The notes under the pieces: generated by a model
Told to the model about the DNA's origin: nothing
Database searches by the model: none
The model's input: the letters and a program-made list of their open reading frames with translations, nothing else
In this document: piece after piece, positions 27,401 through 64,000 of the stretch
How the letters are laid out: every line of letters begins with the position of its first letter
Numbering within the stretch: position 1 is the first letter of the stretch
Position numbers and translations under genes: made by a program
Assembly (NCBI GenBank): GCA_018818205.1
Contig: JAHISJ010000002.1
Coordinates: 3,895-67,894, forward strand
Source of the DNA: Patescibacteria group bacterium
Lineage (GTDB): Bacteria > Patescibacteriota > JABMPQ01 > JAHIRA01
Direction of reading: 5' to 3'
DNA: 64,000 nucleotides

Positions 27401-27816
<416 letters not shown>

Positions 27817-27961
27817 TCTTTTAATAGGGAAAAAGTCTAGCCCTTTCTGTCTTTTATCAACTTTTTGTGTACAGTAAATAGGACATAAAAAGTGAAGATA
27901 GAAAGTGCACAGTCTTTTGGGCTAGAAGCCAGAAAGGGCTAGATTGATGGTACCTATTGAA
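27817..27961 (+). rRNA. rrs: 16S ribosomal RNA, expanded V3 hairpin segment (about 70 nt longer than typical)
   Basis: The GTAAAG-to-GTGCCAGC interval is about 178 nt, against roughly 105 nt in E. coli. Perfect 15-bp complementary arms GTCTAGCCCTTTCTG (27835-27849) and CAGAAAGGGCTAGAT (27932-27946) close an AT-rich interior. Confidence 0.9.
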
Positions 27962-28987
<1,026 letters not shown>

Positions 28988-29554: not shown

Positions 29555-29631
29555 TGGGCGATTAGCTCAGTTGGTTAGAGCGCGTCACTGATAATGACGA
29601 GGTCCCAGGTTCAAATCCTGGATCGCCCACC
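29555..29631 (+). tRNA. tRNA-Ile (anticodon GAT), CCA encoded
   Basis: GGGCGATTAGCTCAGTTGGTTAGAGCGCGTCACTGATAATGACGAGGTCCCAGGTTCAAATCCTGGATCGCCCACCA. Cloverleaf with anticodon loop CTGATAA; this is the canonical rRNA-spacer tRNA. Confidence 0.95.
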
Positions 29632-29742
29632 ATTCGACAGGCTCATGGTGTTTCACCACGTTTAGGACATTTGAAAATCGCAGTACCATTTTTACCAGTA
29701 CGATTGATTTACTGATGAATCAACCTCACTGGCAAACGTGTT

Positions 29743-30179: not shown

Positions 30180-31127
30180 ATGGAAAATCAAAAAAAGAAT
30201 ACAGATATTTCTGTTGTTGTCCCGGTGTACAGCTGTGCACGCTGTCTTCCTGAATTATGTGAGAGACTGACAAAAACCCTAAAAACTATTTCTCAGAATT
30301 TTGAGATTCTGCTTATTAATGATGCCAGCCCGGACGACTCCTGGGCAGTTATCGCTCAACTTGCGAGGGATGATCAAAGAATACGAGGCATTAATTTATC
30401 ACGAAATTTTGGGCAGCATTCTGCAATAACCGCTGGGCTCGATCATGTGTGTGGAGAATGGACAGTTGTAATGGATTGTGACTTGCAGGATCAGCCGGAG
30501 GAGATTTTAAAACTCTACAACAAAGCACAAGAAGGATATGACGTAGTTCTTGGGAGGAGGCATGAAAGAAAAGATACGCAGTTCAAAAAAGCAAGCTCTC
30601 GTGCGTTTTATAAAACGTTTAACTATTTTTCAGGGACCAAAACAACTGCAGAGGTAGCCAATTTCTGTATCTGTTCAAAAAATGTTGTTCAAAACATACG
30701 AAAGTTTAAAGAACAAAATCGATTTTTCCCACATTTCCTTGCGTGGATGGGATTTGATACAGCGTATGTTAACGTAGAACATGCAAAGAGAGCTCATGAT
30801 AAATCGTCTTATACCTTAAAAAAACTCTTTACTCTTGGATTCAATAATCTTGTTGCCTATTCAAACAAGCCACTGAGATTTTCTATTATCTTTGGATTTA
30901 TCGTGGCGCTCGTGTCGCTTATTTTTGCGGTATACCTGGTCGTAAAGTATATTTTCTTGGGTATTTCGGTATCTGGCTGGACGAGTGTTATGGTATCTAT
31001 TTGGTTTACCTCAGGACTTATTATAGCGAGTATTGGCATGGTAGGCTTGTATGTAGGACGAATATTTGATGAGACAAAAAGAAGACCACTCTACATAGTT
31101 AAAGAAGTAACAACAAAACAGGAATGA
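30180..31127 (+). CDS. GT2 polyprenyl-phosphate sugar transferase (GtrB/ArnC/DPM1-like) with two C-terminal TM helices
   Basis: VVVPVYSCARCLPEL...INDASPDDS...VMDCDLQDQPEE GT-A motifs (DxD = DCD) and a C-terminal hairpin of TM helices, as in bactoprenol glycosyltransferases. Confidence 0.8.
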   Translation: MENQKKNTDISVVVPVYSCARCLPELCERLTKTLKTISQNFEILLINDASPDDSWAVIAQLARDDQRIRGINLSRNFGQHSAITAGLDHVCGEWTVVMDCDLQDQPEEILKLYNKAQEGYDVVLGRRHERKDTQFKKASSRAFYKTFNYFSGTKTTAEVANFCICSKNVVQNIRKFKEQNRFFPHFLAWMGFDTAYVNVEHAKRAHDKSSYTLKKLFTLGFNNLVAYSNKPLRFSIIFGFIVALVSLIFAVYLVVKYIFLGISVSGWTSVMVSIWFTSGLIIASIGMVGLYVGRIFDETKRRPLYIVKEVTTKQE

Positions 31128-31834
31128 CGCTTAATCTAATGAAGTTGGATTGGGACTCGGAATTCTTTGGACATACTATTGCTGAATTGTCAGGTTCAGT
31201 GTCTCGTAGTGGACTGGAGGCCGTTTTAAATGAAGCAAAAAAGAGTTCAATTGAGCTTATCCAGGCATGTGTTGACTTATCTGATGTTGACCAAATCAAT
31301 ATGCTAGAGGAAAACGGGTTTCTTTTTTGGGAGACAAAAGTGACATATGAAAAAAAACTATCATTAGAAAAAAAAGAAAAACCCCAGTATATTGAAGCGC
31401 AAGAAAATAACGTTCCTGCATTGCAAAACATAGCCAGTCAGGTTTTTGTTGATAGCAAATACTATGCAGTAGGCTTTGACAAGAAAAAAGTGGATACGCT
31501 CTACGAGGTGTGGGTAGAAAAAGCAGTAAAAGGAACCTTTGATGATTTTTGTCTTATACATCAAGACGAAGATGACATTTTAGGGTTTATTACTGCAAAA
31601 ATACTAGATAAAAAAACTGCTCGTATTGGTTTAATAGGAGTTGACCCACGGCATCAAAGCAAAGGAACAGGTACACAGCTCCTTTTATCTCTTGATGCTA
31701 AGCTTGCCGAAGAAGGAATTGAAAAAATTCAGGTTTCTACGCAAGGGAAGAATGTAGTAGCAAACAACTTTTACATCAAGAATAGTTTTTATCTCAAAGA
31801 ATCTCATGTATGGCTTTATAAGAAAATAATCTAA
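31124..31834 (+). CDS. wecD: dTDP-fucosamine (4-amino-4,6-dideoxy-D-galactose) N-acetyltransferase, WecD-like
   Basis: From memory of enterobacterial WecD it matches along its length: LDWDSEFFG vs LTWENAFFG, YEVWVEKAVKGTFDDFCLI vs YAQWIENAVRGTFDHQCLI, ARIGLIGV, C-terminal HVWLYK vs AYWLYR. GNAT Q/R-x-x-G-x-G/A = HQSKGTG. Confidence 0.75.
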   Translation: MTLNLMKLDWDSEFFGHTIAELSGSVSRSGLEAVLNEAKKSSIELIQACVDLSDVDQINMLEENGFLFWETKVTYEKKLSLEKKEKPQYIEAQENNVPALQNIASQVFVDSKYYAVGFDKKKVDTLYEVWVEKAVKGTFDDFCLIHQDEDDILGFITAKILDKKTARIGLIGVDPRHQSKGTGTQLLLSLDAKLAEEGIEKIQVSTQGKNVVANNFYIKNSFYLKESHVWLYKKII

Positions 31835-31839
31835 ACAAA

Positions 31840-32208
31840 ATGGCCTTTATATATATTGCAGCGACGTCGCTGATGACAGTAGGGTGTCAGTTACTGCTTA
31901 AGTGGAGAGCTACAAAAGTTAATCTTGAACTTGCCGGTAGCGATGAGAAACTAGCTTTTCTTATTAAAATGATCAAGGATCCTTTGGTAATTTTGGCGTT
32001 TCTTTTGGCACTGGGCGCTTCTGTTTTTTGGATGCTTGCACTTTCACAAAGAATCGAGCTGAGCACAGCGTATTCTTTGACGAGCATGAGTTTCATTATT
32101 ATCTTTATTTCTTCGGTTTTCCTTTTTCATGAGTCAATTAGCATATTAAAAATTATTGGTCTTACCTCAATTATTTTTGGCATTGTAGTACTTAGTAGAG
32201 GGTTATGA
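31840..32208 (+). CDS. small four-TM membrane protein, candidate lipid-linked sugar flippase (GtrA / ArnE-ArnF / EamA-like)
   Basis: 122 aa, four TM helices. GCQLLLKWRA near the N-terminus and a C-terminal IIGLTSIIFGIVVLS EamA-like segment. It sits in the position GtrA occupies in gtrABC cassettes. Confidence 0.55.
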   Translation: MAFIYIAATSLMTVGCQLLLKWRATKVNLELAGSDEKLAFLIKMIKDPLVILAFLLALGASVFWMLALSQRIELSTAYSLTSMSFIIIFISSVFLFHESISILKIIGLTSIIFGIVVLSRGL

Positions 32209-33344
32209 CAATGATTCCATTTAACAGGCCACCGTACGTTGGTAAAGAGATAGAGTATATAATACAGGCAGTAGAAGCAAGAAATTTGAGTGGTGATGGC
32301 AGTTTTACTAAAAAATGCCAGGAAGCCATGCAGGATATGTTCGCGTGTAAGAATATTTTTTTAACAACATCTTGCTCAAGTGCGCTTGATATGGCAGCAA
32401 TACTGCTTGAAATAAAAGAGGGTGATGAGGTCATCATGCCATCGTACACGTTTCCGTCTACTGCGAATGCGTTTGCACTGCGTGGAGCACGTATTATTTT
32501 TGTTGATATTAGGTCTGACACTCAAAATATCGATGAAGCCCTGGTAGAGTCAGCAATTACAGAAAAAACAAAGGCTATTGTGGTCGTACATTATGCAGGT
32601 GTGGCATGTGACATGGATGTAATTAACGCTATTGCACAGGAACGTGGTCTTTATGTTGTTGAGGATGCCGCTCAAGGAGTTATGTCGACATACAAGGGGA
32701 GATATCTTGGAACACTTAGTGATATAGGGTGCTACAGTTTTCATGAAACAAAAAACTATACGTGCGGCGAAGGCGGCGCTATAGTTGTTAATAATGAGAA
32801 CTTTCTAGAACGTGCTGAAATTATCAGAGAGAAAGGGACAAATCGAGCAAAGTTCTTTAGAGGAGAGATCGATAAATATTCATGGGTTGATGTGGGCTCT
32901 TCGTATCTTCCCAGTGAACTCAATGCAGCCTATCTCTGGGCACAAATTGAGAAAATGAGGGAAATAAATGAAAACAGAATTGCACTATGGAACGTGTATA
33001 ATGAGCATTTACAGGAACTTGAAGAAAATGGAGACGCAACACTTCCGATAGTACCGGAAAATTGTGAGCACAATGGTCACATGTACTACATTAAAACTAA
33101 CGATTTAGATACGCGTACACAGTTAATACAGCACCTAAAGGCAAAGAAGATCTTAAGTGTTTTCCATTATGTGCCATTGCATTCCTCTGTAGCTGGCAAA
33201 AAGCTTGGTACGTTTCATGGTGACGATACGATTACCACAGATACCAGTGAACGACTACTGAGACTTCCCTTTTATTATGAGATGGACAATGCGCATATAC
33301 GTATAGTAATTAATACTGTCTATGATTTTTTCAAAAACAATTGA
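32205..33344 (+). CDS. wecE: dTDP-4-keto-6-deoxy-D-glucose 4-aminotransferase (DegT/DnrJ/EryC1 family), WecE-like
   Basis: Matches enterobacterial WecE as recalled along the full length (MIPFN.PP.VG.E..Y, GDEVIMPSYTF.STANAF.LRGA.I.FVD.R.DT.NIDE, HYAGVAC.MD, SFHETKNYT.GEGGA with PLP-Lys, AEIIREKGTNR, SERLLRLP). Confidence 0.85.
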   Translation: MTMIPFNRPPYVGKEIEYIIQAVEARNLSGDGSFTKKCQEAMQDMFACKNIFLTTSCSSALDMAAILLEIKEGDEVIMPSYTFPSTANAFALRGARIIFVDIRSDTQNIDEALVESAITEKTKAIVVVHYAGVACDMDVINAIAQERGLYVVEDAAQGVMSTYKGRYLGTLSDIGCYSFHETKNYTCGEGGAIVVNNENFLERAEIIREKGTNRAKFFRGEIDKYSWVDVGSSYLPSELNAAYLWAQIEKMREINENRIALWNVYNEHLQELEENGDATLPIVPENCEHNGHMYYIKTNDLDTRTQLIQHLKAKKILSVFHYVPLHSSVAGKKLGTFHGDDTITTDTSERLLRLPFYYEMDNAHIRIVINTVYDFFKNN

Positions 33345-34860
33345 AGAGGTAAAAAAAATCATTTCTGCGTTAAGCTTGAGCAAAAAAGACATACCGCTTC
33401 TTGTGGTCGGATTTATGGCTTCTTTTCTTTCGCGTGGGGTGCTTTTGTTTTCCTTAGGATACAATACAGACGATTTTTCCATGATGCTTGGCCCCACACG
33501 TAACGGGTATCTACTTGTTTCATACGGAAGATGGGGGATAGCGATCGTTCATAAAGGGTTAGCGATGCTTGGCGTTGAAGCAAACTACGGAACACCCTTT
33601 TTAGTCTTCTTTTCATTTATTGCACTTGCCTACTGTGGCGTGCTCCTCTGTAAGATGTGGGGCATACAAGATAAGCTTGTGCTCTCAAGTGTTGTAATAC
33701 TTCTATTTATTGTACATCCGTATCAAAGTGGTATTTACACGTATTCCTTAGCAATAGTTACGGTTGGACTTGCACTTCTTTTCACATTTGTCCCACTCTA
33801 TGTTCTTACGATCAGGAAGTCAAAAATAATCATTGGGCTTTCTGCCATTCTTTTTTGTTTTGCGTTAAGTATCTATCAAATTACTATAAATTATGCGTTG
33901 GTAGTAGTGTTGGTACTTGTATTGTTGACTTTTTTACGCACTGTTAAGAAAGGACAAAAGACTATTAGTGCATTAAAATACGCATTTAAAAAGTCGTCAG
34001 TACATTTTTTTGTTTTGATTTTAGGAACAGCTTTGTATGGCTGTATTTCATGGATTATCATAAAAGTCCTCGCTATTTTACCATATAGTAGAAGTCAGAT
34101 TCTTTCATTTTCTCCTGAGGAGCTTTTTAAGAGAGCTACACAAATTGCTAATCTCTTTTACGAAATTTTGTTTGTTCATGAGGCTATTAATCCGGGCACT
34201 CTTAAGTACATTGCATTGTTCGTTTTAATGGGGAGTATAGTTGCAGTAGCGGTAAATAGTTGCAGAGGAAAAGTGACATCTTTTGTCGTATATTTAGCAC
34301 TCTTGGTGTCAGTTTTTCTTTCTGTAATTGGTATTTCATTAGCGCTCAAGATTTGGTTTTTTGAGCCACGTCTTTATGCGGCAATCGGCCTTGCTTGGGC
34401 CGCAGTAGTGGTAAGTGGCTATCTATCATTTAGAAGTGTATTTGCAAGGAAAGTATTCATTGCATTATCGGTAGTAGTCATTATTGGTTTTATAAGTATT
34501 GATAATCATATCTTTATTGACAGAATACGAATGAATTCGTTTGATCGAGCTCTTTCTAATAGAATAGTAGCAGCACTTGAACAGAATCCAAACAGTGATA
34601 AGGTAGAACGAATAGTTATCTTGGGAGAGTATGAACATCAGCAACCTGTACAGTCAAGTTTTGCATTAGACTCTTTTTCAAAGGGGTATGCCAAAGTTCA
34701 CTTGCTTAACGAATTTACCGGATATAGCTTTTTAAAGCCGAATGAAGCTGACAGTGAAAAAGCAAACCAGGCGTGTTTGAAGGTATCCAAATGGCCAAAT
34801 CCAGAATCAACTATGATTTTTGATGACCTGGGGGTTGTATGTTTGTCTGAAGTAGAATAA
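33322..34860 (+). CDS. polytopic membrane protein, candidate GT-C glycosyltransferase (GtrC/ArnT-role) with C-terminal extracytoplasmic domain
   Basis: 512 aa, about 11-12 TM helices. Acidic YNTDDF motif in the first extracytoplasmic loop as in GT-C enzymes. A roughly 120-aa soluble C-terminal domain. Overlaps the wecE stop. Confidence 0.5.
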   Translation: MIFSKTIEEVKKIISALSLSKKDIPLLVVGFMASFLSRGVLLFSLGYNTDDFSMMLGPTRNGYLLVSYGRWGIAIVHKGLAMLGVEANYGTPFLVFFSFIALAYCGVLLCKMWGIQDKLVLSSVVILLFIVHPYQSGIYTYSLAIVTVGLALLFTFVPLYVLTIRKSKIIIGLSAILFCFALSIYQITINYALVVVLVLVLLTFLRTVKKGQKTISALKYAFKKSSVHFFVLILGTALYGCISWIIIKVLAILPYSRSQILSFSPEELFKRATQIANLFYEILFVHEAINPGTLKYIALFVLMGSIVAVAVNSCRGKVTSFVVYLALLVSVFLSVIGISLALKIWFFEPRLYAAIGLAWAAVVVSGYLSFRSVFARKVFIALSVVVIIGFISIDNHIFIDRIRMNSFDRALSNRIVAALEQNPNSDKVERIVILGEYEHQQPVQSSFALDSFSKGYAKVHLLNEFTGYSFLKPNEADSEKANQACLKVSKWPNPESTMIFDDLGVVCLSEVE

Positions 34861-34883
34861 AAGTGACAGCTAATAATTAACGT

Positions 34884-35522
34884 ATGCAAGACGAGAGTGG
34901 AGTAAGAAAAATTTTAAATGATGGAGTCTTTTATGATTTTCTGCAGAATATTTTAGGTGCTGGAAAGGCACGAGTATGGCTTGCTGAAAACTATTGGAAT
35001 GTAAAAAAAGGAGACTCTATTATCGATATAGGGTGTGGTACAGGAGAAGTGTTGGACTATCTTGACTTTGATATACAATACACTGGGTTCGACGTTAGTA
35101 AAAAATATATTGATGTAGCTCGAAAGAAATATGGTAACCGTGGAAAGTTCAGTATTGGCACTGCTGAAGAATTTCTAAGAAATCCAAATACATTACCTGA
35201 GGCTGACTTGGTGCTTTGTAATGGCCTGCTTCACCATCTTGAAGATAAAGAAGTAATGCAAGTGCTTGAGCTTTCAAAGGAACTATTGGCAGAAAAAGGA
35301 CGCTTAGTGTGTGTAGAGCCTGTATTTCTAAAAAAACAAACGAAGGCGTCCAAGTGGCTTATGAGTAAGGATAGGGGGCAGAATGTTCGTTCTTTTGATG
35401 AGTGGAATAAAATTGTTGGGAAAATCTTTAATACTTTCTCTCTTGATGTTACTACTGGTCTCATTAGGGCTCCCTATGTTCATGTTATAATTACGTGCAA
35501 TAATGTGCCTGATACTGCATAG
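34884..35522 (+). CDS. class I SAM-dependent methyltransferase
   Basis: Motif I IIDIGCGTGEV, motif II DLVLCNGLLHHL, motif III GRLVCVEP. Confidence 0.75.
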   Translation: MQDESGVRKILNDGVFYDFLQNILGAGKARVWLAENYWNVKKGDSIIDIGCGTGEVLDYLDFDIQYTGFDVSKKYIDVARKKYGNRGKFSIGTAEEFLRNPNTLPEADLVLCNGLLHHLEDKEVMQVLELSKELLAEKGRLVCVEPVFLKKQTKASKWLMSKDRGQNVRSFDEWNKIVGKIFNTFSLDVTTGLIRAPYVHVIITCNNVPDTA

Positions 35523-35579: not shown

Positions 35580-35655
35580 GGGCCCGTAGCTCAGTTGGTA
35601 GAGCACTTGTTTTGCATACAAGGGGTCAGCGGTTCGAATCCGCTCGGGTCCACCA
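35580..35655 (+). tRNA. tRNA-Ala (anticodon TGC), CCA encoded
   Basis: GGGCCCGTAGCTCAGTTGGTAGAGCACTTGTTTTGCATACAAGGGGTCAGCGGTTCGAATCCGCTCGGGTCCACCA. G3:U70 identity pair, anticodon loop TTTGCAT; this is the canonical rRNA-spacer tRNA. Confidence 0.95.
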
Positions 35656-53670: not shown

Positions 53671-53705
53671 CCACAAAATCTAAAAAGGTTTTGTGGTTTT
53701 TTTTA
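53671..53705. terminator. bidirectional rho-independent terminator between the convergent argS and methyltransferase genes
   Basis: CCACAAAA-TCTAAAAAGG-TTTTGTGG hairpin flanked by T-rich (plus strand) and A/T-rich (minus strand) runs. Confidence 0.55.
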
Positions 53706-54434
53706 TGTACGTTTTTCTCCAATACCGATCATATGACGTGCAAATTCTGCAGGTATGGTATTACAAAAGGAGGTTTCTTTTTCTAAAAAATGTATTAATT
53801 GTTTCAATGATAGATTGCGCCGCGTATCAATAACTGTTGAAAAGCGATTATACGTATTCAAAAAATAGTTAATGCCAACCACAGAAATGCTTTCTAAGGG
53901 AGAGAGTAATTTTTTAAGCATTGCGGAGGTGTAGAATATTTTTTTTATTTCTTTATTTAAAGCCGTGCTATCGTCTATAATTTCTAGCTTATATTGGACT
54001 CTCTTGGTGTATGGCATGAGGGCAATATAACCATTTGGCTTTACCACTCTTATAATTTCTGTAATAAGTTTTTTTGGAGACAACGAATAAGACAGAGGAC
54101 CGTATAGGCTGACGACTGAATCAAAGGTGTTGCATTTAAAAGGTAAATTGTGCATATCTCCAGTGATGAATCTTTTTTTTGGATATTTTTTATTTGAAAG
54201 GTTAACCATCTCGTGTGATAGTTCGATGCCAGTGTAATTATCAATGTCTAACATTTCACAGAGAAGTCCATTTCCTGAACCAATATCTAGCACTTTACCT
54301 GTAGCAATAGGTTTTAATATTTTTGATATAATAACGTCTTCAGCTTTGCAAATAAAAGACGAGTATGTTTTATCATAATCCAATGCTTTGGAATCATAGT
54401 AACGGCGAAGCTGATTTAATTTTTCTTTGTTCAT
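53703..54434 (-). CDS. class I SAM-dependent methyltransferase
   Basis: Motif I VLDIGSGNGLL and a downstream acidic loop (DIDNYTGIE), Rossmann MTase fold. Confidence 0.75.
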   Translation of the reverse strand: MNKEKLNQLRRYYDSKALDYDKTYSSFICKAEDVIISKILKPIATGKVLDIGSGNGLLCEMLDIDNYTGIELSHEMVNLSNKKYPKKRFITGDMHNLPFKCNTFDSVVSLYGPLSYSLSPKKLITEIIRVVKPNGYIALMPYTKRVQYKLEIIDDSTALNKEIKKIFYTSAMLKKLLSPLESISVVGINYFLNTYNRFSTVIDTRRNLSLKQLIHFLEKETSFCNTIPAEFARHMIGIGEKRT

Positions 54435-54447
54435 TTGTTTTGCTTTT

Positions 54448-55638
54448 CTATTTAAACCACTCTTTTGCTATAGAAAAATATACCTCTGGCGCCTTGTTAA
54501 GTTCAGTAATATTTATACGTTCATCTGCCACGTGGCTGTACTTAGGATTGCCTGGCCCATATTCATTTATTGTCTTAAATCCTGCATTCCCCCAAAAAGG
54601 CGCATCATTAGCACCAGGGGTTGCAAATGATTGAGGGGCTTTATTGAGCATTTTTTTCACTCCTCTTTTGAATATATCCAAAACGGGGTCGTCATCATGA
54701 AGTGCGTGTCCGGGAACGGGCGGGTGAAGATAGTTATGTGAAATTTTAAAGCCGGATTCCTTATGCTCTAAAAGAAATCGTTTTAATTCATCATTAAGTA
54801 AATAGAATTGGTTTGCAAAAAGAATGGGCCCCACACGACAATCAAATGTTGCAGTCGCAGTAGCGGGAAGACTATTTGGTTTTGCGGGGACAATATTGCT
54901 ATCAATAATCCCAAGATTAGACTCAAGGGTGGTGAGAGTAATGGTGTGTGTGTTAAACGCGTGCTCCGGATATTTTTTGTTTAGTGTTTTTTCGAGCGAG
55001 CTTATATCTGAAATGATAGCCGCAAGTTTTACTGCTGCATTTTTTCCCTGATGAGATCTTGACGCATGTGCACTTTTTCCGGTGATAGTCACTGTTATAA
55101 ATGCATTTCCTTTGTTACCAATAGAAAAATGTCTAAGACCAGTAGGCTCACCGACAATAACAAGAGTCTCTTCAAGGATGGGTTTTATTTTTTCTGTGAG
55201 ATAGGGAACAAGCGCTTCTGTTCCAGCGCCACTTGTTTCTTCGTGCGATACGAGAGCAACAATCATGCGATACTCTTTCGCAAGTTCACTTTTAGAAAAT
55301 GCAAGAAGAGTATGTAACATACTTGCACCGATACCTTTTGCATCGTTTGCACCAAGTCCAAAGAGATATCCATCATGCTCATGAGGATCGAACGGTTTTG
55401 TTTCTTTCCAGCCTTGTGGCTCAGGTACGACCGTGTCTAAATGCGTGGTCAAAATAATAGTCCGCGGTCCCTTTCCGGAAGAAAGGAAAATATTGGTTAA
55501 CCCCTTTTTTTCTTGAATAGTTTGTGAAATATGGTGTTCTTTTCCCCAACTTTTAACAAATTTCATAATTGCATCCTCGTTTCCCGAGGTGCTGGGGATG
55601 GAGATGAGTTGTTTTGCGAGGGTTGTTGGTGTCATCAT
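54448..55638 (-). CDS. M20-family metallopeptidase/deacylase (ArgE/DapE-like)
   Basis: HLDTV (His ligand), GANDAKG (Asp), SHEETSG (Glu-Glu), and the C-terminal His region. Confidence 0.8.
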   Translation of the reverse strand: MMTPTTLAKQLISIPSTSGNEDAIMKFVKSWGKEHHISQTIQEKKGLTNIFLSSGKGPRTIILTTHLDTVVPEPQGWKETKPFDPHEHDGYLFGLGANDAKGIGASMLHTLLAFSKSELAKEYRMIVALVSHEETSGAGTEALVPYLTEKIKPILEETLVIVGEPTGLRHFSIGNKGNAFITVTITGKSAHASRSHQGKNAAVKLAAIISDISSLEKTLNKKYPEHAFNTHTITLTTLESNLGIIDSNIVPAKPNSLPATATATFDCRVGPILFANQFYLLNDELKRFLLEHKESGFKISHNYLHPPVPGHALHDDDPVLDIFKRGVKKMLNKAPQSFATPGANDAPFWGNAGFKTINEYGPGNPKYSHVADERINITELNKAPEVYFSIAKEWFK

Positions 55639-55678
55639 CTACTAGTACGCTAGCATAAAATAGAAAAAAAGAAAAATA

Positions 55679-56749
55679 TTAGGCTGGTACTCCGAGCCCA
55701 AAACCTGTAGGAATCTCAATATCAAAATCGTGATATACGAGCCCCTTGCTCATATTTGAATCAATTCTATCTGGTCTGGTAAGATCATAGCACATAAAAT
55801 CGCCAAGTGTCGCAGCGTGTAAATTGTATGCAGTGCCAATTGACGAGTGTATCATATCTCCTAATACGTATTGGATGCTATTATTCTTGCAATATTCTAT
55901 CATACGTTTAGTTTCAAGCAGCCCTCCTGTCTTTGCGAGCTTAATATTGATCATATCTATGGCACATACTCTGTGCAGATTTTTTAGGTCAAAAAGAGTA
56001 TGACAGCTCTCATCTGCCATGAGACTAACAGGAAGTTCCTTTTTTAGTGCTGCAAAGGCTTCAAAGTTGTGTGCACTAAATGGTTGTTCGAGCCATGCGA
56101 TGTTTTCTGGATTTATTTTTGAGATAAAACCAAGCGCCTCTTTTGGTGTATTCCACGCCTGATTTGCGTCAAAGATAAGTTTGATGTCAGGAAATGCAGA
56201 AGCAATGGTAGCTATGGTCTCTTTTTCTGCGTTTTCATCTCCGCCTACTTTAAGTTTAATGTAAGGAACATTTTTTGAAAGCGCATCAGCAATAGAATCA
56301 ATTAAACCAGAACTTTCTTGATCCTCAAAGGAAAGTGTTTTGATAGTAGTGACTGAGTCTTTCTTTTTTCCTCCAAGGAGCTCAAAAATAGGCTTATTTA
56401 CTTTTTTACCAAGAGCATCAAGAAGCGCTGATTCAATAGCGGTTTTTATTCCGGTGTTACCATAAAGCTCTGATTCAAGATCAGACAAGATACTTTGGAC
56501 GTCTTGAACTGAATTCAACTTCTTATCTTCTATTACGTCTCGAACTAACGTGACGGCTTCTATGCTTCCTGCCTGTGTTTCGCCAGTCACATCCCACGCA
56601 AGCGCTGCCTCACCGTTTCCTTGTATGCTTTCATCTGTCTGAGTAGTGATGAGCGTGTAAGGTAGAGTGGTAAGCGTGAGCGTATGATAAGAAAACGGTT
56701 TTTTAAGACCAATACTATATGGTTTTGCGGATATATGCTTTATTTCCAT
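55679..56749 (-). CDS. enolase-superfamily enzyme (dipeptide epimerase / MR-MLE-like)
   Basis: KLKVG (KxK), IFDANQAW (Asp), WLEQP (Glu), LMADES (Asp), NIKLAKTGG (Lys). Pattern of L-Ala-D/L-Glu epimerase-like members. Confidence 0.75.
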   Translation of the reverse strand: MEIKHISAKPYSIGLKKPFSYHTLTLTTLPYTLITTQTDESIQGNGEAALAWDVTGETQAGSIEAVTLVRDVIEDKKLNSVQDVQSILSDLESELYGNTGIKTAIESALLDALGKKVNKPIFELLGGKKKDSVTTIKTLSFEDQESSGLIDSIADALSKNVPYIKLKVGGDENAEKETIATIASAFPDIKLIFDANQAWNTPKEALGFISKINPENIAWLEQPFSAHNFEAFAALKKELPVSLMADESCHTLFDLKNLHRVCAIDMINIKLAKTGGLLETKRMIEYCKNNSIQYVLGDMIHSSIGTAYNLHAATLGDFMCYDLTRPDRIDSNMSKGLVYHDFDIEIPTGFGLGVPA

Positions 56750-56752
56750 GAT

Positions 56753-57877
56753 TTAGAACGATTTTAATCCCGTTCCTGTAATAATCAGCGCAACTTTTTT
56801 AAGATTCAGATCACGGCATTTCTCTAACGCTGGAAATACAGATGCCGCAGTTGGCTCAATACAAAGTGCTTCTTTTTTTAAAGCAATTGCATTCCACGTT
56901 TTAATTTCACTGTCGGTTACTTCAATAACGGTACCGTTTGTTTTTTTGAGCGCGTTAATCGCTTTTGGGGAACAGTAGCTTTCAAGGGCTACAATACCTT
57001 CGGCAATAGAATCTTCAATGTCATCTAATATTTCATAATCTGTGTCGTTCTTTAAAGCCATTGCGATGGGTGCGGCATTTTTAACTTGTATTCCAATGAG
57101 CTTTGGATATGACTTAAGAGCGCCTGATTCCTTCATTTTTTGCATGCCATTAAAGATTCCTGAAAGTAATGACCCGTTTCCCATAGGAACTACAATTGCA
57201 TCAACAAAACCAATATCATGAACAATTTCCGGACAAATACTCTCATCTCCCAGTTCTCTAAAGGGGTTTTGCCCGGCGGAAACATGAAATGGCGCATGCT
57301 GGTCATCAACGACCTTTCTGTATACATCTTCAAAAAAGCCATCAATGAAATGAATTACCCCGTTAAATTTTTTGATGAGACGTATTTTTTCTTTAGATGT
57401 TTTTTTGGGAATAAAGCAATGACACGCAATGTCTGCTTTTAAAGCGTAGGCTGCCGCAGAAAGCGCGGCGTTTCCGGAAGAGATAACAGAAACCTCTTTT
57501 TTACCTAAAAGTTTTGCAACGTTTATGGCGACTTCACTTTCTCTATCTTTAAATGACCCTGTCGGATTAAAATGTTCACATTTAGCGTATACTTCCGGTA
57601 TGTCTACTAAACGGGAAACATGATGAAGCACGACTGTAGGGGTTTTAAAAAGACCGAGAGTAACCCATGGGGCTCCCGCTTCTCCTTGTATGGTTTCAAG
57701 ACTTACAGTAGGAATAAAATAATCATAATAAGGAGTGGTGGAGCAACATTTTGGCAGGCGACCAGTATAGGTGAATTCTTTGTTGCAGGTGATACATTGT
57801 ATTGTAAAAGTCATTTTATTGACAAAAAAGTAATAAAGACATACAGTCATTATATGGATCACGACACAGTTAGTCAA
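56753..57877 (-). CDS. threonine-synthase-like PLP-dependent enzyme (Trp-synthase beta superfamily) with N-terminal zinc-ribbon
   Basis: PLP-Lys motif NPTGSFKDRE, Gly-rich loop, N-terminal CITCNKEF...CC. The likely start is MTFTIQ at 57814. Confidence 0.7.
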   Translation of the reverse strand: MTNCVVIHIMTVCLYYFFVNKMTFTIQCITCNKEFTYTGRLPKCCSTTPYYDYFIPTVSLETIQGEAGAPWVTLGLFKTPTVVLHHVSRLVDIPEVYAKCEHFNPTGSFKDRESEVAINVAKLLGKKEVSVISSGNAALSAAAYALKADIACHCFIPKKTSKEKIRLIKKFNGVIHFIDGFFEDVYRKVVDDQHAPFHVSAGQNPFRELGDESICPEIVHDIGFVDAIVVPMGNGSLLSGIFNGMQKMKESGALKSYPKLIGIQVKNAAPIAMALKNDTDYEILDDIEDSIAEGIVALESYCSPKAINALKKTNGTVIEVTDSEIKTWNAIALKKEALCIEPTAASVFPALEKCRDLNLKKVALIITGTGLKSF

Positions 57878-57985
57878 AGCATTTTTCTGAATCGTAGAAC
57901 CTAAAGGACTCGCAGTTATAGTCTTTATTTTTAGTGATAAAGCCTATATAGCGAGTTTTTTTGCGCTTTTTGGTTAGGAGGAAGT

Positions 57986-58534
57986 ATGAGAATAATAGAA
58001 GCAGGCCATTATTACCAGGCCCACGGCCCGACTGAATTTTCAAAGTTGGGCTGGGGAATATTAGTGCGGTTGTTAACGGAAGAAGACAAAGCACTTTTAT
58101 GGATTGACGATGTACATAGTTTAAAAGATGTACCAAAACAAGAAAAGAAAATGGATGTTGTTGAATTTGACCCAAGAACCCATTTTCGTCTACTTGAATC
58201 AGCTATGGTTCCGTATGCTCGGAAAATTTTTGATCGGTTGATGCTGCTTCCTAAAAGAAAAAAACCAAGGAAGCGCAAAGATGGCGGTTGGAGCTTAAAC
58301 GGAGACATTCGACTCTTTTGGCCGGACGGAATGCCTACTTGTGTGATGCTGGATGCGGGACTTTCGCTTTGGAAACTAGAGCAAGGATTTAAAGTAGGTA
58401 TTAATATTCTTCCTGCATTCTACGGAGAACAACAACAATCGCTCTTAAAAATATTAGGCAAAGCGCTCCCAGAATTTGATCAACAAGTGGTATTGTTTGA
58501 TGTGGAAGGAGGCTATTATTTCATGGAAAAATGA
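57986..58534 (+). CDS. hypothetical protein
   Basis: 182-aa ORF on the opposite strand inside the minus-strand cluster. Contains a basic patch KRKKPRKRK. No family recognised. Confidence 0.35.
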   Translation: MRIIEAGHYYQAHGPTEFSKLGWGILVRLLTEEDKALLWIDDVHSLKDVPKQEKKMDVVEFDPRTHFRLLESAMVPYARKIFDRLMLLPKRKKPRKRKDGGWSLNGDIRLFWPDGMPTCVMLDAGLSLWKLEQGFKVGINILPAFYGEQQQSLLKILGKALPEFDQQVVLFDVEGGYYFMEK

Positions 58535-58682
58535 ATAGAAAAATTTGATGGAAGACGCAAAAAGCATCTTCCTTTTTTTTATGGAAAGATTTTTTTGCAA
58601 AGAAAAAGGCACACATAACTATGTGTGCTCAGTAAAATCATTCCATACGTTTTTGTCAGCAATAGCGCTATTTTATTTAGCC

Positions 58683-59936
58683 TTAGTCGTTTTCTATCCA
58701 AGCGCTTGTAACAGCCATGTACATCAAAACCGCTTCAGCCATCTCAGAAATACTATTCCACTCATCGGGAATGTGATTCCTGTGTCTGTCCCCTGGTCCA
58801 AATTCATTAATAGTGTCAAAACCAGCTTCGCCCCAGAAGAACGCGTCGTTTGCACCGGTGGAAATATGCATCTTAGCACGGTTGCCGGACTTTTCAAGAA
58901 CTACCTGCTCGAGTGTTCGTGCTGCTTTTCCTTCTGTGTCGGTAACATGACCTTCCACAGGGGAATGCAAAAAATTAACGTCTGCCGTAAAACTTTCATG
59001 AAGTGATTTTTGAACATGTTCTTCTAGTAGCTTTGCAAAAAGTGCGAAGTTATCAACAAAAAGCGGCTCACCCATTCTGCAATCTAAAATAACTGTTGCG
59101 GTATTTGGAATAGTGTTGGGTTTTGCTGGGACAATTTCTCCATCGGTAAAAATCAGATTTGAATTCAATCCTGTAACTGAGATTGTCGGTTTTCCAAGAA
59201 CAGGATCAGTGTAGTCTCTTATTAGTATTTCTTCAAAAGTAGAGATAGAATGTACAATCGAGCAAGTTTCTGCTGCTGCGTTTAGACCACGTTCAGGTGT
59301 TGATCCGTGACAGCTCTTACCGTGAATAGTTATTTTAATAAAAGCATTACCCTTATTGGCACAGGTGTATCCATCAAGACCGGTCGGCTCACCAACAATA
59401 ACCATGGTTTTTTGAGGATCTATCACCAGCTCTTTCAAATGGTCTTTAAAATAGTCAGCAGTAATCCGAGAGCCAAGTCCACTGGTTTCCTCCTGGGAAA
59501 CCAGCGCAACAATAATACGTCCGTGTTTTGCGGCTTCTGTGATTGCAAAATGTTTTGCAGCAAGCATCATTGAGACTGCAATACCGGTTGCGTCATTGGA
59601 CCCAAGTCCGTAAAGCCTGTCATCAACCACTTTGGGAGAAAAGGGATCAGTGACGGTCCATTTCTTCGGAGAGGGAACAACAGTATCAAGATGTGTGGTA
59701 AGAATAAGCGTGGGTCCAGTCGGCTCCCCAACTGCAAATGAAATGTTTACTGATCCATCCTTTTCTATCTTAACCGGAGAACAGTTCAAATTGTTGGAAA
59801 CCCAAGTAAGTACTGCTTCAATAACGTTAGCTTCGTTTCCAGAGGTGCTTGGGATAGCAATGAGCTTAGAACAAAGCTCAGTCACTTCCCTTTGGATTTC
59901 AAATGACATTATTCCTCCTAGATATAAAAAAAGCAC
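58683..59936 (-). CDS. M20-family metallopeptidase/deacylase (second paralog)
   Basis: HLDTVVP, GSNDATG, SQEETSG motifs. The likely start is MSFEIQ at 59909. Confidence 0.8.
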   Translation of the reverse strand: MLFLYLGGIMSFEIQREVTELCSKLIAIPSTSGNEANVIEAVLTWVSNNLNCSPVKIEKDGSVNISFAVGEPTGPTLILTTHLDTVVPSPKKWTVTDPFSPKVVDDRLYGLGSNDATGIAVSMMLAAKHFAITEAAKHGRIIVALVSQEETSGLGSRITADYFKDHLKELVIDPQKTMVIVGEPTGLDGYTCANKGNAFIKITIHGKSCHGSTPERGLNAAAETCSIVHSISTFEEILIRDYTDPVLGKPTISVTGLNSNLIFTDGEIVPAKPNTIPNTATVILDCRMGEPLFVDNFALFAKLLEEHVQKSLHESFTADVNFLHSPVEGHVTDTEGKAARTLEQVVLEKSGNRAKMHISTGANDAFFWGEAGFDTINEFGPGDRHRNHIPDEWNSISEMAEAVLMYMAVTSAWIEND

Positions 59937-59990
59937 ACATAGCGCATGCTTAATGAAGTGTAACAGTAAATGGATTATTGTAAATAGCTA

Positions 59991-60383
59991 TCAAATAGTG
60001 GGATTATACTCGCCAAACTTTTTGCCACGTTCGACAACAGTCACCTCAACCTCAGCAAAACCAAAAAATTCTTGAGTAAAAGCAACAATAGCATCCACAG
60101 GAATATCCGTTTTACACGTGGCAATGTCTATCATGACAAACCCTCGCTCGTCAAAAGTATGGATCGCAATGTGGCTTTCACTAATGACAGTAACACCTGT
60201 CACGCCACCTCTGTCTTTTTCTGAGACTGGTTTTGCGACAAGATTGTGGGGTCCAAAAAGTACGTTCATGCCACACAGGCGCGTAGCTTCCAATTGATAT
60301 TCGGTGATTGCCTCAGTATCACAAAACAATGCGTTGTTTCCCCCATAACAATCAAGAATAATGTGTAAACCGAAAAATGACAT
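59991..60383 (-). CDS. speH: pyruvoyl-dependent S-adenosylmethionine decarboxylase proenzyme, SpeH-type (AdoMetDC / arginine decarboxylase family)
   Basis: FGLHIILDCYG and the self-cleavage site ISESHIAIHTFDE...DIATCK characteristic of the SpeH family. The start is taken at MSFFG, so the track ORF is shortened. Confidence 0.75.
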   Translation of the reverse strand: MSFFGLHIILDCYGGNNALFCDTEAITEYQLEATRLCGMNVLFGPHNLVAKPVSEKDRGGVTGVTVISESHIAIHTFDERGFVMIDIATCKTDIPVDAIVAFTQEFFGFAEVEVTVVERGKKFGEYNPTI

Positions 60384-60790
60384 TGCGTCCCATCCTTTTT
60401 TTGTTGAAAATGATCTAAAAAAGCATTGTGATTGTATCACTGCTCTCTCTATATCTCAATGATATTTTTGACGCATTATACTTGTCAAACTGTTTTTTTT
60501 CTGATACGCTTGATATGCTTTGAGAGTTGAGTGTTAGTCAGGCAGTTTGGATAGTAGGTGATAACTGACCTACAGAGGCTCAAAGCTACATAATCATTAA
60601 ATAGGATTCCTTTAAGATGTACAGTACAAAGATGAAAAGGATGAAAAGCTAGGACAGTGGAGCGTTATACTATGAATCATTTTTCTTTCAGTGATTTAAG
60701 TACAGCAGAATACAGAAGTATCTTATGCGGCGCATAGGGTAGATCTTTGTGCACACATGCTCTTTTGGGACTCCGTAAGGGAGAAATCGT

Positions 60791-62314
60791 ATGAGCGTTA
60801 TTATGATAGCGGCGATTGTTTCATTGGTAGTTGGCACTGGAGCTGGATATGGCATTAGAAAGGTAGTGGCCAGAAAGCGCACTGATGAAGCAGAAGCCAA
60901 AGCAGGAAAACTGCTTGAGGAAGCTAAAACAAAACAGAAAGAGCTTGTTTTAGAGGGTAGAGGCAAGGCGATAAAAATAGCTGAGGAAGCAAAAGTTGAG
61001 GAACAAGAGCGTCGTCAGCAGGTTTTGCATGCGGAAAAAAGAATAGATAAACGTGAGGAAGCGCTGGATCAAAGAGAAAACTCGCTTGAGAGAAAAAACA
61101 AGGGTCTAAACAATAAAGAGCGTGAGATAAGCAAAATCAAGAAGGAGCTCATTGCAATCAAGCAGCAACAACTTGAGAAGCTAGAAAAAGTTGCTGCGCT
61201 TTCTACAGAGCAAGCGAAGAAGCATTTACTCAGTGTTGTTGAACGTGATCTGCGCACAGAAATTACCGATCAGATCAAGAAATACAAAGGCGTTGCAGAA
61301 GAGGAATCAAAGCGAAACGCGCAAAAGATTATTGCATTTGCCATAGAACGGTACTCACGTGATCAGTCAGCAGAGATGACTGCATCATCGGTAAATCTAC
61401 CGTCGGATGAAATGAAGGGACGTATTATTGGTAAAGAAGGCAGAAACATAAAACGATTTGAAGAACTGACTGGTGTTGAGATCATTGTTGATGATACTCC
61501 GGAAGCGATTGTCATTTCTGGATTTAATCCGATCAGACGGCATGTTGCAAAACGTGCGCTTGAAAAGCTCATTCAAGATGGCCGGATCCATCCTGCGAGA
61601 ATTGAAGAGACTATTTTAAAGGTTAAACAAGAGATTGCACAGGATATTAAAGAAGCCGGAGAAGAAGCGGTGTATGAGCTTGGTATTACCGGTCTTAATC
61701 CGAAGCTGGTACAACTCGTTGGGCGTCTTAAATTTAGATCAAGTTTTGGGCAAAATGTACTTAAACATTCAATCGAGGTGGCAAACATTGCCAATATGCT
61801 TTGTGAAGAACTTGGCGCGCGGACAAATATTGTTAAGCAGGCAGGGCTTCTTCATGACATTGGTAAAGCGGTAGATCATGAGGTTGAAGGCACGCACATT
61901 GAGATTGGTAGGAAGATTCTTGAAAAGTTTGGCGTTGCGGAAGAGGTCATTCATGCTATGGAATGTCATCATGGTGATGTTGAACCAACAACTGTTGAAG
62001 CAGTCATTGTGACCGCAGCAGACGGCATCTCTGGAAGTAGAGTAGGCGCAAGAAAAGATAGCTATGAAGATTATATTAAACGGCTTGAAGAGCTTGAGAA
62101 TATTGCTTCAACGTTCCCAGGTGTAGACAAAGTCTATGCCGTACAGGCGGGAAGAGAAGTTCGTGTTTTTGTACGTCCGGAAGAGTTGGATGATGAGGGG
62201 TCACTGCTTCTTGCGCGGAACGTGGCAAATAGAATTGAAGAAGAACTCAAGTATCCCGGTGAAATTAAAGTAAATGTAATTCGGGAACTTAGAGCAATCG
62301 AGTACGCCCGTTAA
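60791..62314 (+). CDS. rny: ribonuclease Y
   Basis: N-terminal TM, coiled coil, KH (GRIIGKEGRNIKRFEELTGV), HD domain (HSIEVANIA...LLHDIGKA). Confidence 0.95.
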   Translation: MSVIMIAAIVSLVVGTGAGYGIRKVVARKRTDEAEAKAGKLLEEAKTKQKELVLEGRGKAIKIAEEAKVEEQERRQQVLHAEKRIDKREEALDQRENSLERKNKGLNNKEREISKIKKELIAIKQQQLEKLEKVAALSTEQAKKHLLSVVERDLRTEITDQIKKYKGVAEEESKRNAQKIIAFAIERYSRDQSAEMTASSVNLPSDEMKGRIIGKEGRNIKRFEELTGVEIIVDDTPEAIVISGFNPIRRHVAKRALEKLIQDGRIHPARIEETILKVKQEIAQDIKEAGEEAVYELGITGLNPKLVQLVGRLKFRSSFGQNVLKHSIEVANIANMLCEELGARTNIVKQAGLLHDIGKAVDHEVEGTHIEIGRKILEKFGVAEEVIHAMECHHGDVEPTTVEAVIVTAADGISGSRVGARKDSYEDYIKRLEELENIASTFPGVDKVYAVQAGREVRVFVRPEELDDEGSLLLARNVANRIEEELKYPGEIKVNVIRELRAIEYAR

Positions 62315-62324
62315 CACAAACAGT

Positions 62325-63116
62325 ATGCTTAAAGTACTATTCTTTGGTGATGTCTACGGACGTCCAGGAAGACGTGCACTCAAGAAGGCAGTGCCAAAAC
62401 TAAAAAAACACTATGATACTGATATTGTTATTGCAAACGTAGAAAACGCTGCACATGGCGTCGGAATAACAAAAAAAACGCTCGCTGAGCTTATGGATGC
62501 AGGGATTGATTTTGCCACCTCAGGAAATCATATCTTTAACAGAAAAGACGGTATTGAGCTTCTCAATGAAAAAGATCCTGTTTTGATTCGTCCGGCAAAC
62601 TATCCTCCGGGGGCGCCTGGGGTTGGGTATAAGATTATCCCCATTAGAACGCAGAAGCTTTTGGTGGTTAATGTTATGGGACGCGTGTTTATGAAAGAGG
62701 ATTTGGATTGTCCGTTTAGAGCGATGGATACCATTTTAGACGAGGTTGGGAGTGATATAAAAAACATTGTCGTTGATTTCCATGCCGAGGTTACGAGCGA
62801 GATGATTGCGCTTGGCATGTATCTTGATGGACGGGTGAGCGCGGTGTTTGGCACACACACGCATGTGCCAACACAGGACTTTAAAATCCTTCCCGGCGGC
62901 ACAGCCTACGTCACCGATGTAGGCATGGTTGGGCCAACAAACTCGGTTTTGGGAGTCGATAAAGATATCATTCTTCGTCGCTATTTAACGCAAATGTCGG
63001 AGTCAATGGAGGTTGCCGATTCACCGCAAGCTGAGGTCAATGCCGTGTATTTTGAAATCGATTCAAAGGGAAAAGCAAGTAAAATAGAGAAGATCTACGA
63101 GGTGTATGACGTATGA
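62325..63116 (+). CDS. ymdB: YmdB-like metallophosphoesterase (2',3'-cyclic-nucleotide phosphodiesterase family)
   Basis: KVLFFGDVYGRPGRRAL...VIANVENAAHGVGIT...GNH signature. Conserved rny-ymdB pairing. Confidence 0.88.
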   Translation: MLKVLFFGDVYGRPGRRALKKAVPKLKKHYDTDIVIANVENAAHGVGITKKTLAELMDAGIDFATSGNHIFNRKDGIELLNEKDPVLIRPANYPPGAPGVGYKIIPIRTQKLLVVNVMGRVFMKEDLDCPFRAMDTILDEVGSDIKNIVVDFHAEVTSEMIALGMYLDGRVSAVFGTHTHVPTQDFKILPGGTAYVTDVGMVGPTNSVLGVDKDIILRRYLTQMSESMEVADSPQAEVNAVYFEIDSKGKASKIEKIYEVYDV

Positions 63117-63203
63117 TATCCACTTGCCCAGCAAAAAAGCCTTATGTAGAATGAAGTTGTTACTTAAAGCTAAGATAAACAAGCCCGAAAGGGGGTGAAA
63201 AAC

Positions 63204-63479
63204 ATGACAAAAACAGATCTTATCAACGAAATGGCAAGCAAAGCATCAGTATCAAAGAAAGATGCAGAAGCAGTGCTTGATGCCCTTATTACAACCGTTA
63301 CCGATGAACTTAAAAAGGACAGCAAGGTTGCAGTAACCGGATTTGGTACCTTTAAGGTTTCAAAGAGAAAGGCCAGGACTGGTGTTAACCCTCAAAAACC
63401 TACAGAGAAGATTCAGATTCCTGCAATGAATGTTCCAAAATTCACACCAGGAAAAACGTTCAAAGACGCAATTCGCTAG
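63204..63479 (+). CDS. hup: DNA-binding protein HU
   Basis: MTKTDLINEMASKASVSKKDAEAVLDAL...GFGTFKVSKRKARTGVNPQ. RBS AAGGGGG 9 nt upstream of ATG 63204. The track begins at an in-frame GTG at 63195. Confidence 0.92.
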   Translation: MTKTDLINEMASKASVSKKDAEAVLDALITTVTDELKKDSKVAVTGFGTFKVSKRKARTGVNPQKPTEKIQIPAMNVPKFTPGKTFKDAIR

Positions 63480-63617: not shown

Positions 63618-63652
63618 GAGAATAAAAAAAGGAAGCGATTTATTTCGCTTCC
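63618..63652 (-). terminator. rho-independent terminator for the serpin gene
   Basis: GGAAGCGA-AATAAAT-TCGCTTCC hairpin followed on the minus strand by a T7 run. Confidence 0.6.
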
Positions 63653-63675: not shown

Positions 63676-64000
63676 TTATCGACTAAAGTCAGTTTCTTCA
63701 ATCCAGTGCTTAGGAGTAACATGTGCAATAAAGGGTGGAAAGTCTAGACCTTCCTTCCAGAATATAACAAAAAAAGGTCTGATTATTGTGTAACAATAAA
63801 TACGAGGTCCACCGCAAAGTGGTGGCATGAATACTGCAGCTTGCGCTTTAGCTCCCTTTTCATCAAGTCGAAGCTTAGTCTTCTTTTTTGCAGTTACAAT
63901 TGTATTGCTGTGTGCTTTCATTCCAGTCAAAAAATCTATATCAACATGTATGTCTAGTTCAACCATGGGGAAGCGCAATTTCGTAGACGCTAATGCGGTT
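63676..64000 (-). CDS. serpin-family protease inhibitor, C-terminal part (5' end of the gene lies beyond the window)
   Basis: Hinge/reactive-centre-loop pattern LDEKGAKAQAAVFMPPLCGG, s4B/s5B motifs IIRPFFVIF and PPFIAHVTPKH. The reading frame stays open to the window edge. Confidence 0.55.
   Translation of the reverse strand, partial: TALASTKLRFPMVELDIHVDIDFLTGMKAHSNTIVTAKKKTKLRLDEKGAKAQAAVFMPPLCGGPRIYCYTIIRPFFVIFWKEGLDFPPFIAHVTPKHWIEETDFSR

Follow-up and report, generated by a model that had tools for sequence, protein, structure and literature searches.

Serpins are the textbook example of a metastable protein machine, and the minimum scaffold that can sustain their spring-loaded mechanism is an open structural question. 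They are known in bacteria, although their occurrence there is sporadic. Described prokaryotic members of the family (PF00079), such as thermopin from Thermobifida fusca (1SNG), miropin (5NCS) and chloropin, are canonical proteins of 370-410 aa that exceed the Pfam threshold over the whole domain. Most prokaryotic serpins carry N-terminal transport peptides (Spence et al., PMC8233489), and inhibitory serpins have the hinge consensus ExGTEAAAA at positions P17-P9 (PMC8233489). Insertion of the reactive-centre loop requires that the hinge residues be small (PMC3268027).

A precedent for serpins from which whole elements have been deleted is provided by two viral proteins, myxoma virus Serp-3 (M152R, 273 aa) and cowpox CrmA (341 aa). 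CrmA inhibits efficiently even though helix D and part of helix A are missing from it. We know of no protease target described for Serp-3. This protein is reported to have ‘several apparent domain deletions’, yet it is a virulence factor (PMC3131250). Another short serpin-related protein is Spi1C, a 214-aa ‘serpin’ from a marine metagenome that was reported to inhibit trypsin and chymotrypsin (PMC3225930). Below we describe a gene from a Patescibacteria group bacterium whose product, at 278 aa, falls within this small size range, together with the family to which it belongs.

Extent and surroundings of the gene

The stretch of DNA analysed, hereafter the window, comprises 64,000 nucleotides and ends inside a minus-strand frame that is stop-free from 63999 to 63679. 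By translation this frame yields 107 aa (TALASTKLRFPMVELDIHVDIDFLTGMKAHSNTIVTAKKKTKLRLDEKGAKAQAAVFMPPLCGGPRIYCYTIIRPFFVIFWKEGLDFPPFIAHVTPKHWIEETDFSR*), with the stop codon at 63676-63678. The frame runs open to the window edge, and the TTG-start ORF at 63676..63978 is therefore only a mechanical one. An earlier note on this DNA had drawn attention to this open frame and to the hinge and loop peptides with which it ends, and all of these peptides (EKGAKAQAAVFMPPLCGG, IIRPFFVIF and PPFIAHVTPKH) are indeed present. When the sequence is extended beyond position 64000, as the earlier note had advised, the frame does stay open, but for just 171 more residues and not for about 270-290.

The whole gene (837 bp, encoding 278 aa) was read on an ENA metagenome contig (L001, 11352-12188, minus strand), which was found along with a Logan contig (L002) by an exact-sequence look-up of the neighbouring YmdB protein. 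The ENA contig is 100% identical to the window across an overlap of 11,676 bp and extends 736 bases past position 64000, with the residual 171 codons located at would-be positions 64001-64512. The full protein corresponds to NCBI entry KKH43_00490 from a Patescibacteria group bacterium, where it is named "hypothetical protein".

The ATG is preceded by a GGGAGG ribosome-binding site, and a promoter-like sequence, TTGACA-18-TACTAT with an extended TG, is located about 40 nt upstream. An in-frame TAG is present six codons 5' of the ATG, which rules out a longer product. The claim that the gene has its own terminator is borne out by a hairpin resembling an intrinsic terminator (Table 1), which lies 23 nt past the stop codon, is followed by TTTTTTTATT, and is also present on the ENA contig. 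Given that the promoter-like site, the ribosome-binding site and the terminator are all its own, the gene forms a self-contained single-gene unit. Another, weak terminator-like hairpin, found within the coding sequence (63737-63754, minus strand; seven pairs, three of them G-C, with a poor T-run), is probably a chance match.

We also considered whether a same-frame ORF of 64-68 aa immediately upstream might be an N-terminal exon, a pseudogene piece or a signal peptide. This ORF was rejected because it ends in the TAG, contains the promoter-like site and carries no serpin similarity, and it is probably spurious. With 3,894 bases before the window and 736 after it, the 68,630-bp source contig ends 224 bp upstream of the ATG. 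The ENA contig ends at the same position (L001 12189-12412, would-be 64513-64736), and the Logan contig ends 113 bp upstream of the ATG, which suggests that a repeat or a strain-variable region is located there. The GC content of the gene (0.403) equals that of the window (0.403), and its GC3 is slightly low, at 0.297 versus 0.355 +/- 0.043; this compositional test is uninformative and gives no signal of recent horizontal transfer.

Table 1. Features of the serpin-like gene that lie within the window (window positions).
Feature	Position	Strand	Basis
3' end of the coding sequence, residues 172-278 of 278 aa plus stop codon	63676..64000	-	Translation
Terminator-like hairpin GGAAGCGAAATAAATCGCTTCC (8-bp stem with 5 G-C pairs, 6-nt loop; stem-loop 63652->63631)	63621..63652	-	
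Hinge and reactive-centre loop, residues E218-R237, EKGAKAQAAVFMPPLCGGPR	63802..63861	-	hhalign to alpha1-antitrypsin
Strand s4B, residues 243-251, IIRPFFVIF	63760..63786	-	Alignment; model strand 247-252
Strand s5B, residues 259-265, PPFIAHV	63718..63738	-	Alignment; model strand 261-265
W270 codon, after s5B	63703..63705	-	Invariant in alignments A1 (93 sequences) and A2 (12 sequences)

The gene is convergent with a gene for an HU-type DNA-binding protein (63195-63479, plus strand), which is preceded by genes for RNase Y (60791-62314) and a YmdB-family phosphoesterase (62325-63116). No protease partner for the serpin-like protein was seen within the window.

Several other features of the window merit brief mention. 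A minus-strand block at 53703-60440 contains genes for a methyltransferase, an M20 peptidase, an MR_MLE-family racemase or epimerase and a PALP enzyme; it is interrupted by a 182-aa plus-strand gene of unknown function, after which come genes for a further M20 peptidase and an AdoMet-decarboxylase-like protein. The block may be a cluster for amino-acid or dipeptide salvage. The 16S rRNA gene (27401-28986, plus strand) and the genes for tRNA-Ile (29556-29632) and tRNA-Ala (35580-35655) are also found here, with the two tRNA genes separated by approximately 6 kb of protein-coding ORFs (30180-35522). There is no 23S or 5S gene anywhere in the window, and thus the rRNA genes appear to be unlinked. 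The first 7122 nucleotides belong to a surface-glycosylation gene cluster that also covers about 3.9 kb before the window (L015 1-11016) and encodes two GT4 glycosyltransferases, two Wzy_C O-antigen-ligase-like proteins, two PMT_2 glycosyltransferases and an AI-2E-family transporter. Between this cluster and a large unannotated gene is an ORF of 311-315 aa (8322-9269, minus strand) that resembles an IS-type transposase in having rve integrase and HTH_32 domains. The large gene (10031-12643, minus strand; 866-870 aa) has no Pfam match on record, and its called start differs from the TTG of the mechanical ORF.

Serpin assignment and predicted fold

The only Pfam match of the fragment encoded within the window is to Serpin (PF00079; E 0.0033, 17.1 bits), with residues 24-94 of the fragment lined up in register with positions 295-367, at the end of the 370-position model. 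All eight of its weak matches in the PDB are serpin C-termini, with single-sequence E-values of 0.28-1.3, and the best of these is 1SNG. The Pfam check that the earlier note had put forward nevertheless fails at the cut-off of 27 bits, both for the fragment and for the full protein, which scores 14.3 bits and aligns through residues 195-265 with the same profile positions only. The full protein has no match in NCBIfam. Searches against PADLOC and PHROGs likewise returned no matches, and so do not connect the protein to any known defence system or phage family. Judged by the fragment alone, the resemblance to serpins is suggestive rather than significant; significance is reached with the whole protein and its family.

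A family profile built from 93 sequences matches 127 solved chains at E<=1, and all 60 of those listed are serpins. The best match is to PAI-1 (E 1e-10), where profile positions 135-283 align with PAI-1 residues 212-376, and the alignments to serpins B3 and B4 extend back to position 63. An hhalign comparison with alpha1-antitrypsin, ovalbumin and PAI-1 gave a probability of 96% (E 2.8e-9); the C-terminus of the PAI-1 reference sequence used here agrees with the PDB alignment. In this comparison W98 is paired with the breach Trp194 of alpha1-antitrypsin, F181-P182 with L288-P289, G220 with G344 (P15), P246-F247 of strand s4B with P369-F370, and F261 of strand s5B with F384. The assignments of the hinge, the reactive-centre loop and strands s4B and s5B proposed in the earlier note agree with this alignment.

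The sequence significance is carried by the C-terminal ~100-150 residues. When the N-terminal 175 residues were compared by hhalign with the same three canonical serpins, the probability was 0.4% (E 0.16), and only the helix-F motif aligned. One match, 9HBK, bears the name ‘Superinfection exclusion protein’, and we considered whether it might point to a phage function. This idea was set aside, as our literature search yielded only poxvirus papers that link this name to serpins; 9HBK is probably the vaccinia serpin K2/SPI-3.

An AlphaFold2 model made with the 93-sequence alignment has a mean pLDDT of 89.1 and a pTM of 0.86, whereas prediction from the single sequence (pLDDT 32.8) was useless. 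The sole low-confidence stretch (pLDDT below 50) comprises residues 225-236, which correspond to the predicted reactive-centre loop. A Foldseek search of the PDB with this model returned 286 matches at E<=1e-3, and the 50 listed are all serpins, with query-normalised TM-scores of 0.46-0.64 and sequence identities of 10-15%. Scores of this size exceed what the C-terminal third could give, and therefore the N-terminal part appears to be serpin-like in structure as well. Serpins were also returned from a viral structure library, including myxoma virus M152R (target-normalised TM-score 0.55, 10% identity) and ORF_045R of scale drop disease virus (315 aa). The model thus adopts the three-dimensional fold of a serpin.

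With both the family profile and this confident model leading to serpins, the identification of a serpin-family gene that the earlier note had made holds, and we regard membership in the serpin-fold family as close to certain. The expectation that serpin helices and sheets would be found upstream is upheld in part: they are undetectable by sequence in the N-terminal 175 residues but are evident in the predicted structure, from which the homology of this region to serpins is read.

The protein is approximately 100 residues shorter than canonical serpins. The model begins with a strand-helix pair that fits s6B-hB, which suggests that helix A is absent, and helices B and F are spaced by 40 residues versus about 84 in alpha1-antitrypsin, such that most of hC/hD/s2A seems to be absent also. 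Hence, 278 aa do not accommodate the full complement of helices A-I and sheets A, B and C that makes up a domain of ~350-400 residues, and the missing portions are probably helix A and the hC/hD/s2A segment, as judged from the order of elements and a permissive alignment. Retained in this protein and its relatives, which we call mini-serpins, are sheets B and C, strands s3A, s5A and s6A, helix F, the breach Trp and the hinge, along with a reactive-centre loop that appears to be exposed. Conservation is high in the strands that follow the loop, at P246 (90%) and F247 (95%) in s4B and at P259 (97%) and F261 (92%) in s5B, the latter two residues being equivalent to those of the P-L-F-x-G motif of serpins. 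The invariant W270 is a feature of this family and not of canonical serpins.

Hinge, reactive-centre loop and relatives

The hinge, E218-K-G-A-K-A-Q-A-A226, agrees exactly with the consensus for inhibitory serpins at six of nine positions, and the Lys at P16 is allowed. P15 is G220, the three residues that must be buried on insertion (P14, P12 and P10) are all Ala, P8 is Val, and the Lys at P13 and the Gln at P11 face the solvent. The hinge departs from the usual pattern at P14, where Ala replaces Thr or Ser. By its composition, then, the hinge is of the inhibitory type. Among the 93 aligned relatives, P15 is invariably Gly, P14 is Ala in 95%, Ala and Val predominate at P12, P10 is Ser or Ala, and P9 is Ala in 84%. 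Positions P6-P3' are hypervariable, and no segment of the family varies more than the reactive-centre loop.

In 58 of these 93 relatives, a basic residue (Arg or Lys) is located 12-13 residues past P15, as compared with 14 for the canonical P1, and the residue next to it is Gly, Ser or Cys. The two residues look like a P1-P1' pair that has been moved one or two residues nearer to the hinge. The equivalent pair in the protein described here is C233-G234, within the sequence P-P-L-C-G-G, whereas canonical counting would assign P1 to G234. A Gly at the canonical P1 is unusual, and Cys occupies the position where the family has its Arg or Lys. With Cys-Gly at the putative scissile site, the specificity of this protein cannot be read off and probably differs from that of most relatives. 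There are 25 residues from the P15 Gly to the s4B Pro, versus 24 in alpha1-antitrypsin. The basic residue of the family lies 12-13 rather than 14 residues past P15, and the geometry of the loop may therefore differ from the canonical one.

When 1.84 billion cluster representatives were searched exhaustively with phmmer, 607 representative relatives were identified at E<=1e-3, 194 of them at E<=1e-10. Nearly all are 270-320 aa long (median 291 aa) and are aligned end to end, and 124 of the 150 relatives listed measure 260-319 aa. Since this length is conserved across hundreds of relatives, 278 aa is not an artefact of truncation. Of the 93 relatives in alignment A1, 68 match Pfam Serpin at E<0.01, always through their last ~65 residues and with scores of 17-32 bits, and some of these (28.6, 30.4 and 32.3 bits) are above the gathering score. 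The family has thus largely been missed by annotation, with members at or below the Pfam threshold and named "hypothetical protein". Three of the 93 match PF20307, a divergent DnaB-like ATPase (best E 4.8e-6), and one relative (P0027) is either fused to a ribosomal L7/L12 C-terminal domain or mis-called with one.

A word-indexed homologue search found none with the fragment, only the protein itself with the full sequence, and 12 proteins with the family alignment. An exact search of genome and metagenome contig collections with a 34-mer from the gene gave no match, and a search for related loci with this protein alone revealed no relative in either contig collection.

No conserved neighbour was observed at the loci of six relatives, which are surrounded by ordinary bacterial housekeeping genes. 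The exception is P0158 (L010 5309-10157), whose gene is located directly upstream of, and on the same strand as, a gene for a 436-aa trypsin-family protein (PF00089; 28.6 bits, cut-off 20.6). These two could be paired as inhibitor and protease, in a bacterium that has eukaryote-like genes. Further downstream at this locus are a gene for a 505-aa protein without a Pfam match and a UCH-type deubiquitinase-like gene. A different relative, P0021 (294 aa; L017 8001-8885), is encoded by an intronless gene on a 732-kb scaffold of the fungus Hyaloraphidium curvatum, where the genes around it, among them Pex16, a cytochrome P450 and a BTG gene, are typical of eukaryotes. Another related cluster includes a diatom transcriptome sequence. 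Taken together, these members indicate that the mini-serpin family spans bacteria and at least one eukaryote.

Candidate function and comparison with known serpins

The best explanation for these observations as a whole is a compact cytoplasmic serpin that acts by the canonical suicide-substrate mechanism, which we favour with modest confidence. That this particular protein is a functional protease inhibitor has slightly better than an even chance. If it operates in this manner, a target protease would cleave the loop around L232-C233-G234-G235, the hinge G220-A-K-A-Q-A-A-V, with its small residues, would enter sheet A as strand s4A, and the acyl-enzyme would be trapped as a result. The target could be a protease of the cell itself, or one brought by a phage or a host.

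Serpins need not be inhibitors, as is demonstrated by ovalbumin, HSP47 and the hormone-binding globulins, and the same fold could serve here as a compact scaffold for binding, chaperone or storage roles, with a loop that does not insert. The loss of ~100 scaffold residues, probably including strand s2A of the very sheet that must open, favours such a protein, as do the Ala at P14, the atypical Cys and Gly at the scissile site, and the fact that no protease gene is located nearby on the source contig. However, the small residues at P15, P14, P12, P10 and P9 are strongly conserved across the 93 relatives, whereas non-inhibitory serpins, in our understanding, typically have bulky or charged hinge residues (see also PMC3268027). 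The hypervariable loop, in which Arg or Lys often directly precedes Gly, Ser or Cys, also reflects the pattern of an inhibitor, and one relative (P0158) adjoins a trypsin-family gene. We therefore consider a non-inhibitory role to be rather unlikely, although it is the main alternative.

The earlier note had proposed that the protein might target host or competitor proteases, as a secreted or exported effector would. The organism is a Patescibacteria bacterium, and many Patescibacteria are episymbionts. Moreover, signal or lipoprotein leaders are present in some close relatives (P0003, P0008, P0009, P0011, P0012, P0015 and P0017). The proposal is not supported by the protein itself, where the note's suggested check of the true N-terminus, made by eye and with a crude script, reveals neither a signal peptide nor a lipoprotein signal: the sequence starts with MVVTKSSAFCL directly at the conserved core, has no hydrophobic leader, and is barred from a longer N-terminus by the in-frame stop. 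Most relatives also begin directly at the core, and only a minority have leaders. In a crude scan, no more than 29 of the 150 relatives listed were marked as signal-peptide-like, and some of these are false positives caused by a hydrophobic first helix. An exported effector is consequently quite improbable, and the missing signal peptide suggests that the protein is most likely cytoplasmic.

Two further explanations can be regarded as effectively excluded. The protein might be the decaying remnant of a canonical serpin of ~380 residues from which the 5' part has been lost, as its shortfall of ~100 residues, the same-frame open stretch upstream of the TAG and the end of the contig 224 bp upstream of the ATG might hint. 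Yet its short length is shared with relatives that match end to end, structure prediction gives a compact, confident model, a promoter-like site and a ribosome-binding site serve the gene itself, the open stretch upstream holds that promoter-like site and no serpin-like sequence, and the missing material is partly internal rather than N-terminal alone. A pseudogene is accordingly very improbable. Even less credible would be a chance resemblance to serpins, to which the sub-threshold Pfam scores and the weak single-sequence PDB matches could be attributed; the profile-level matches are to serpins only among those listed, the hhalign comparison agrees, and the top Foldseek matches are all serpins. 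For this last explanation we would reserve the smallest likelihood of all.

Returning to the compact inhibitory serpin that we prefer, its closest described counterparts are the canonical prokaryotic serpins, with which it shares the core of the fold, the hinge-loop-s1C-s4B-s5B module, the breach Trp and the L/F-P motif before s6A; miropin (5NCS) is among the Foldseek matches. It differs from these proteins in its length, in aligning with the end of the Pfam profile only, in apparently lacking helix A and hC/hD/s2A, and in having no transport peptide. The likeness of the family profile to PAI-1 spans s2B/s3B through s5B, including the hinge and the loop, whereas the N-terminal half has no detectable sequence similarity, and we see no reason to infer a specificity or a latency like that of PAI-1. 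The reduced viral serpins differ in belonging to poxviruses and in having no close sequence kinship with our protein, and the comparison does not imply that the same deletions have occurred. Spi1C is 36-43% identical to canonical bacterial serpins, looks like part of one, and falls outside the mini-serpin family.

Our literature search turned up no report of serpins from Patescibacteria or the Candidate Phyla Radiation, none of short bacterial serpins, and no description of a widespread cellular family of ~285-residue serpins. The main phylogeny of the serpin superfamily dropped sequences whose length fell more than 25% below the median (PMC8233489), a filter by which a ~285-residue family would have been excluded. 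We regard the family as overlooked and mis-annotated, and as offering no new mechanism. It is tempting to propose, although we hold this only tentatively and at somewhat less than an even chance, that it represents an unrecognised clade of minimal serpins of ~285 residues that lack helix A and hC/hD/s2A, are mostly cytoplasmic and still function as conformational-trap inhibitors.

If this proposal is correct, the known size limit of the serpin machine would be lowered, and streamlined Patescibacteria, along with other bacteria that carry relatives, would be keeping such regulators, possibly against their own or invading proteases. For Patescibacteria, whose genomes have very few accessory functions, the gene adds a candidate regulator of proteolysis. 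Should the protein described here instead be non-inhibitory, it would be one more divergent serpin-fold protein. The family itself comprises hundreds of 50%-identity clusters with a conserved hinge of the inhibitory type. At ~25% smaller than canonical serpins, this diverse natural family could provide a ready minimal scaffold for studies of serpin folding, engineering and mechanism.
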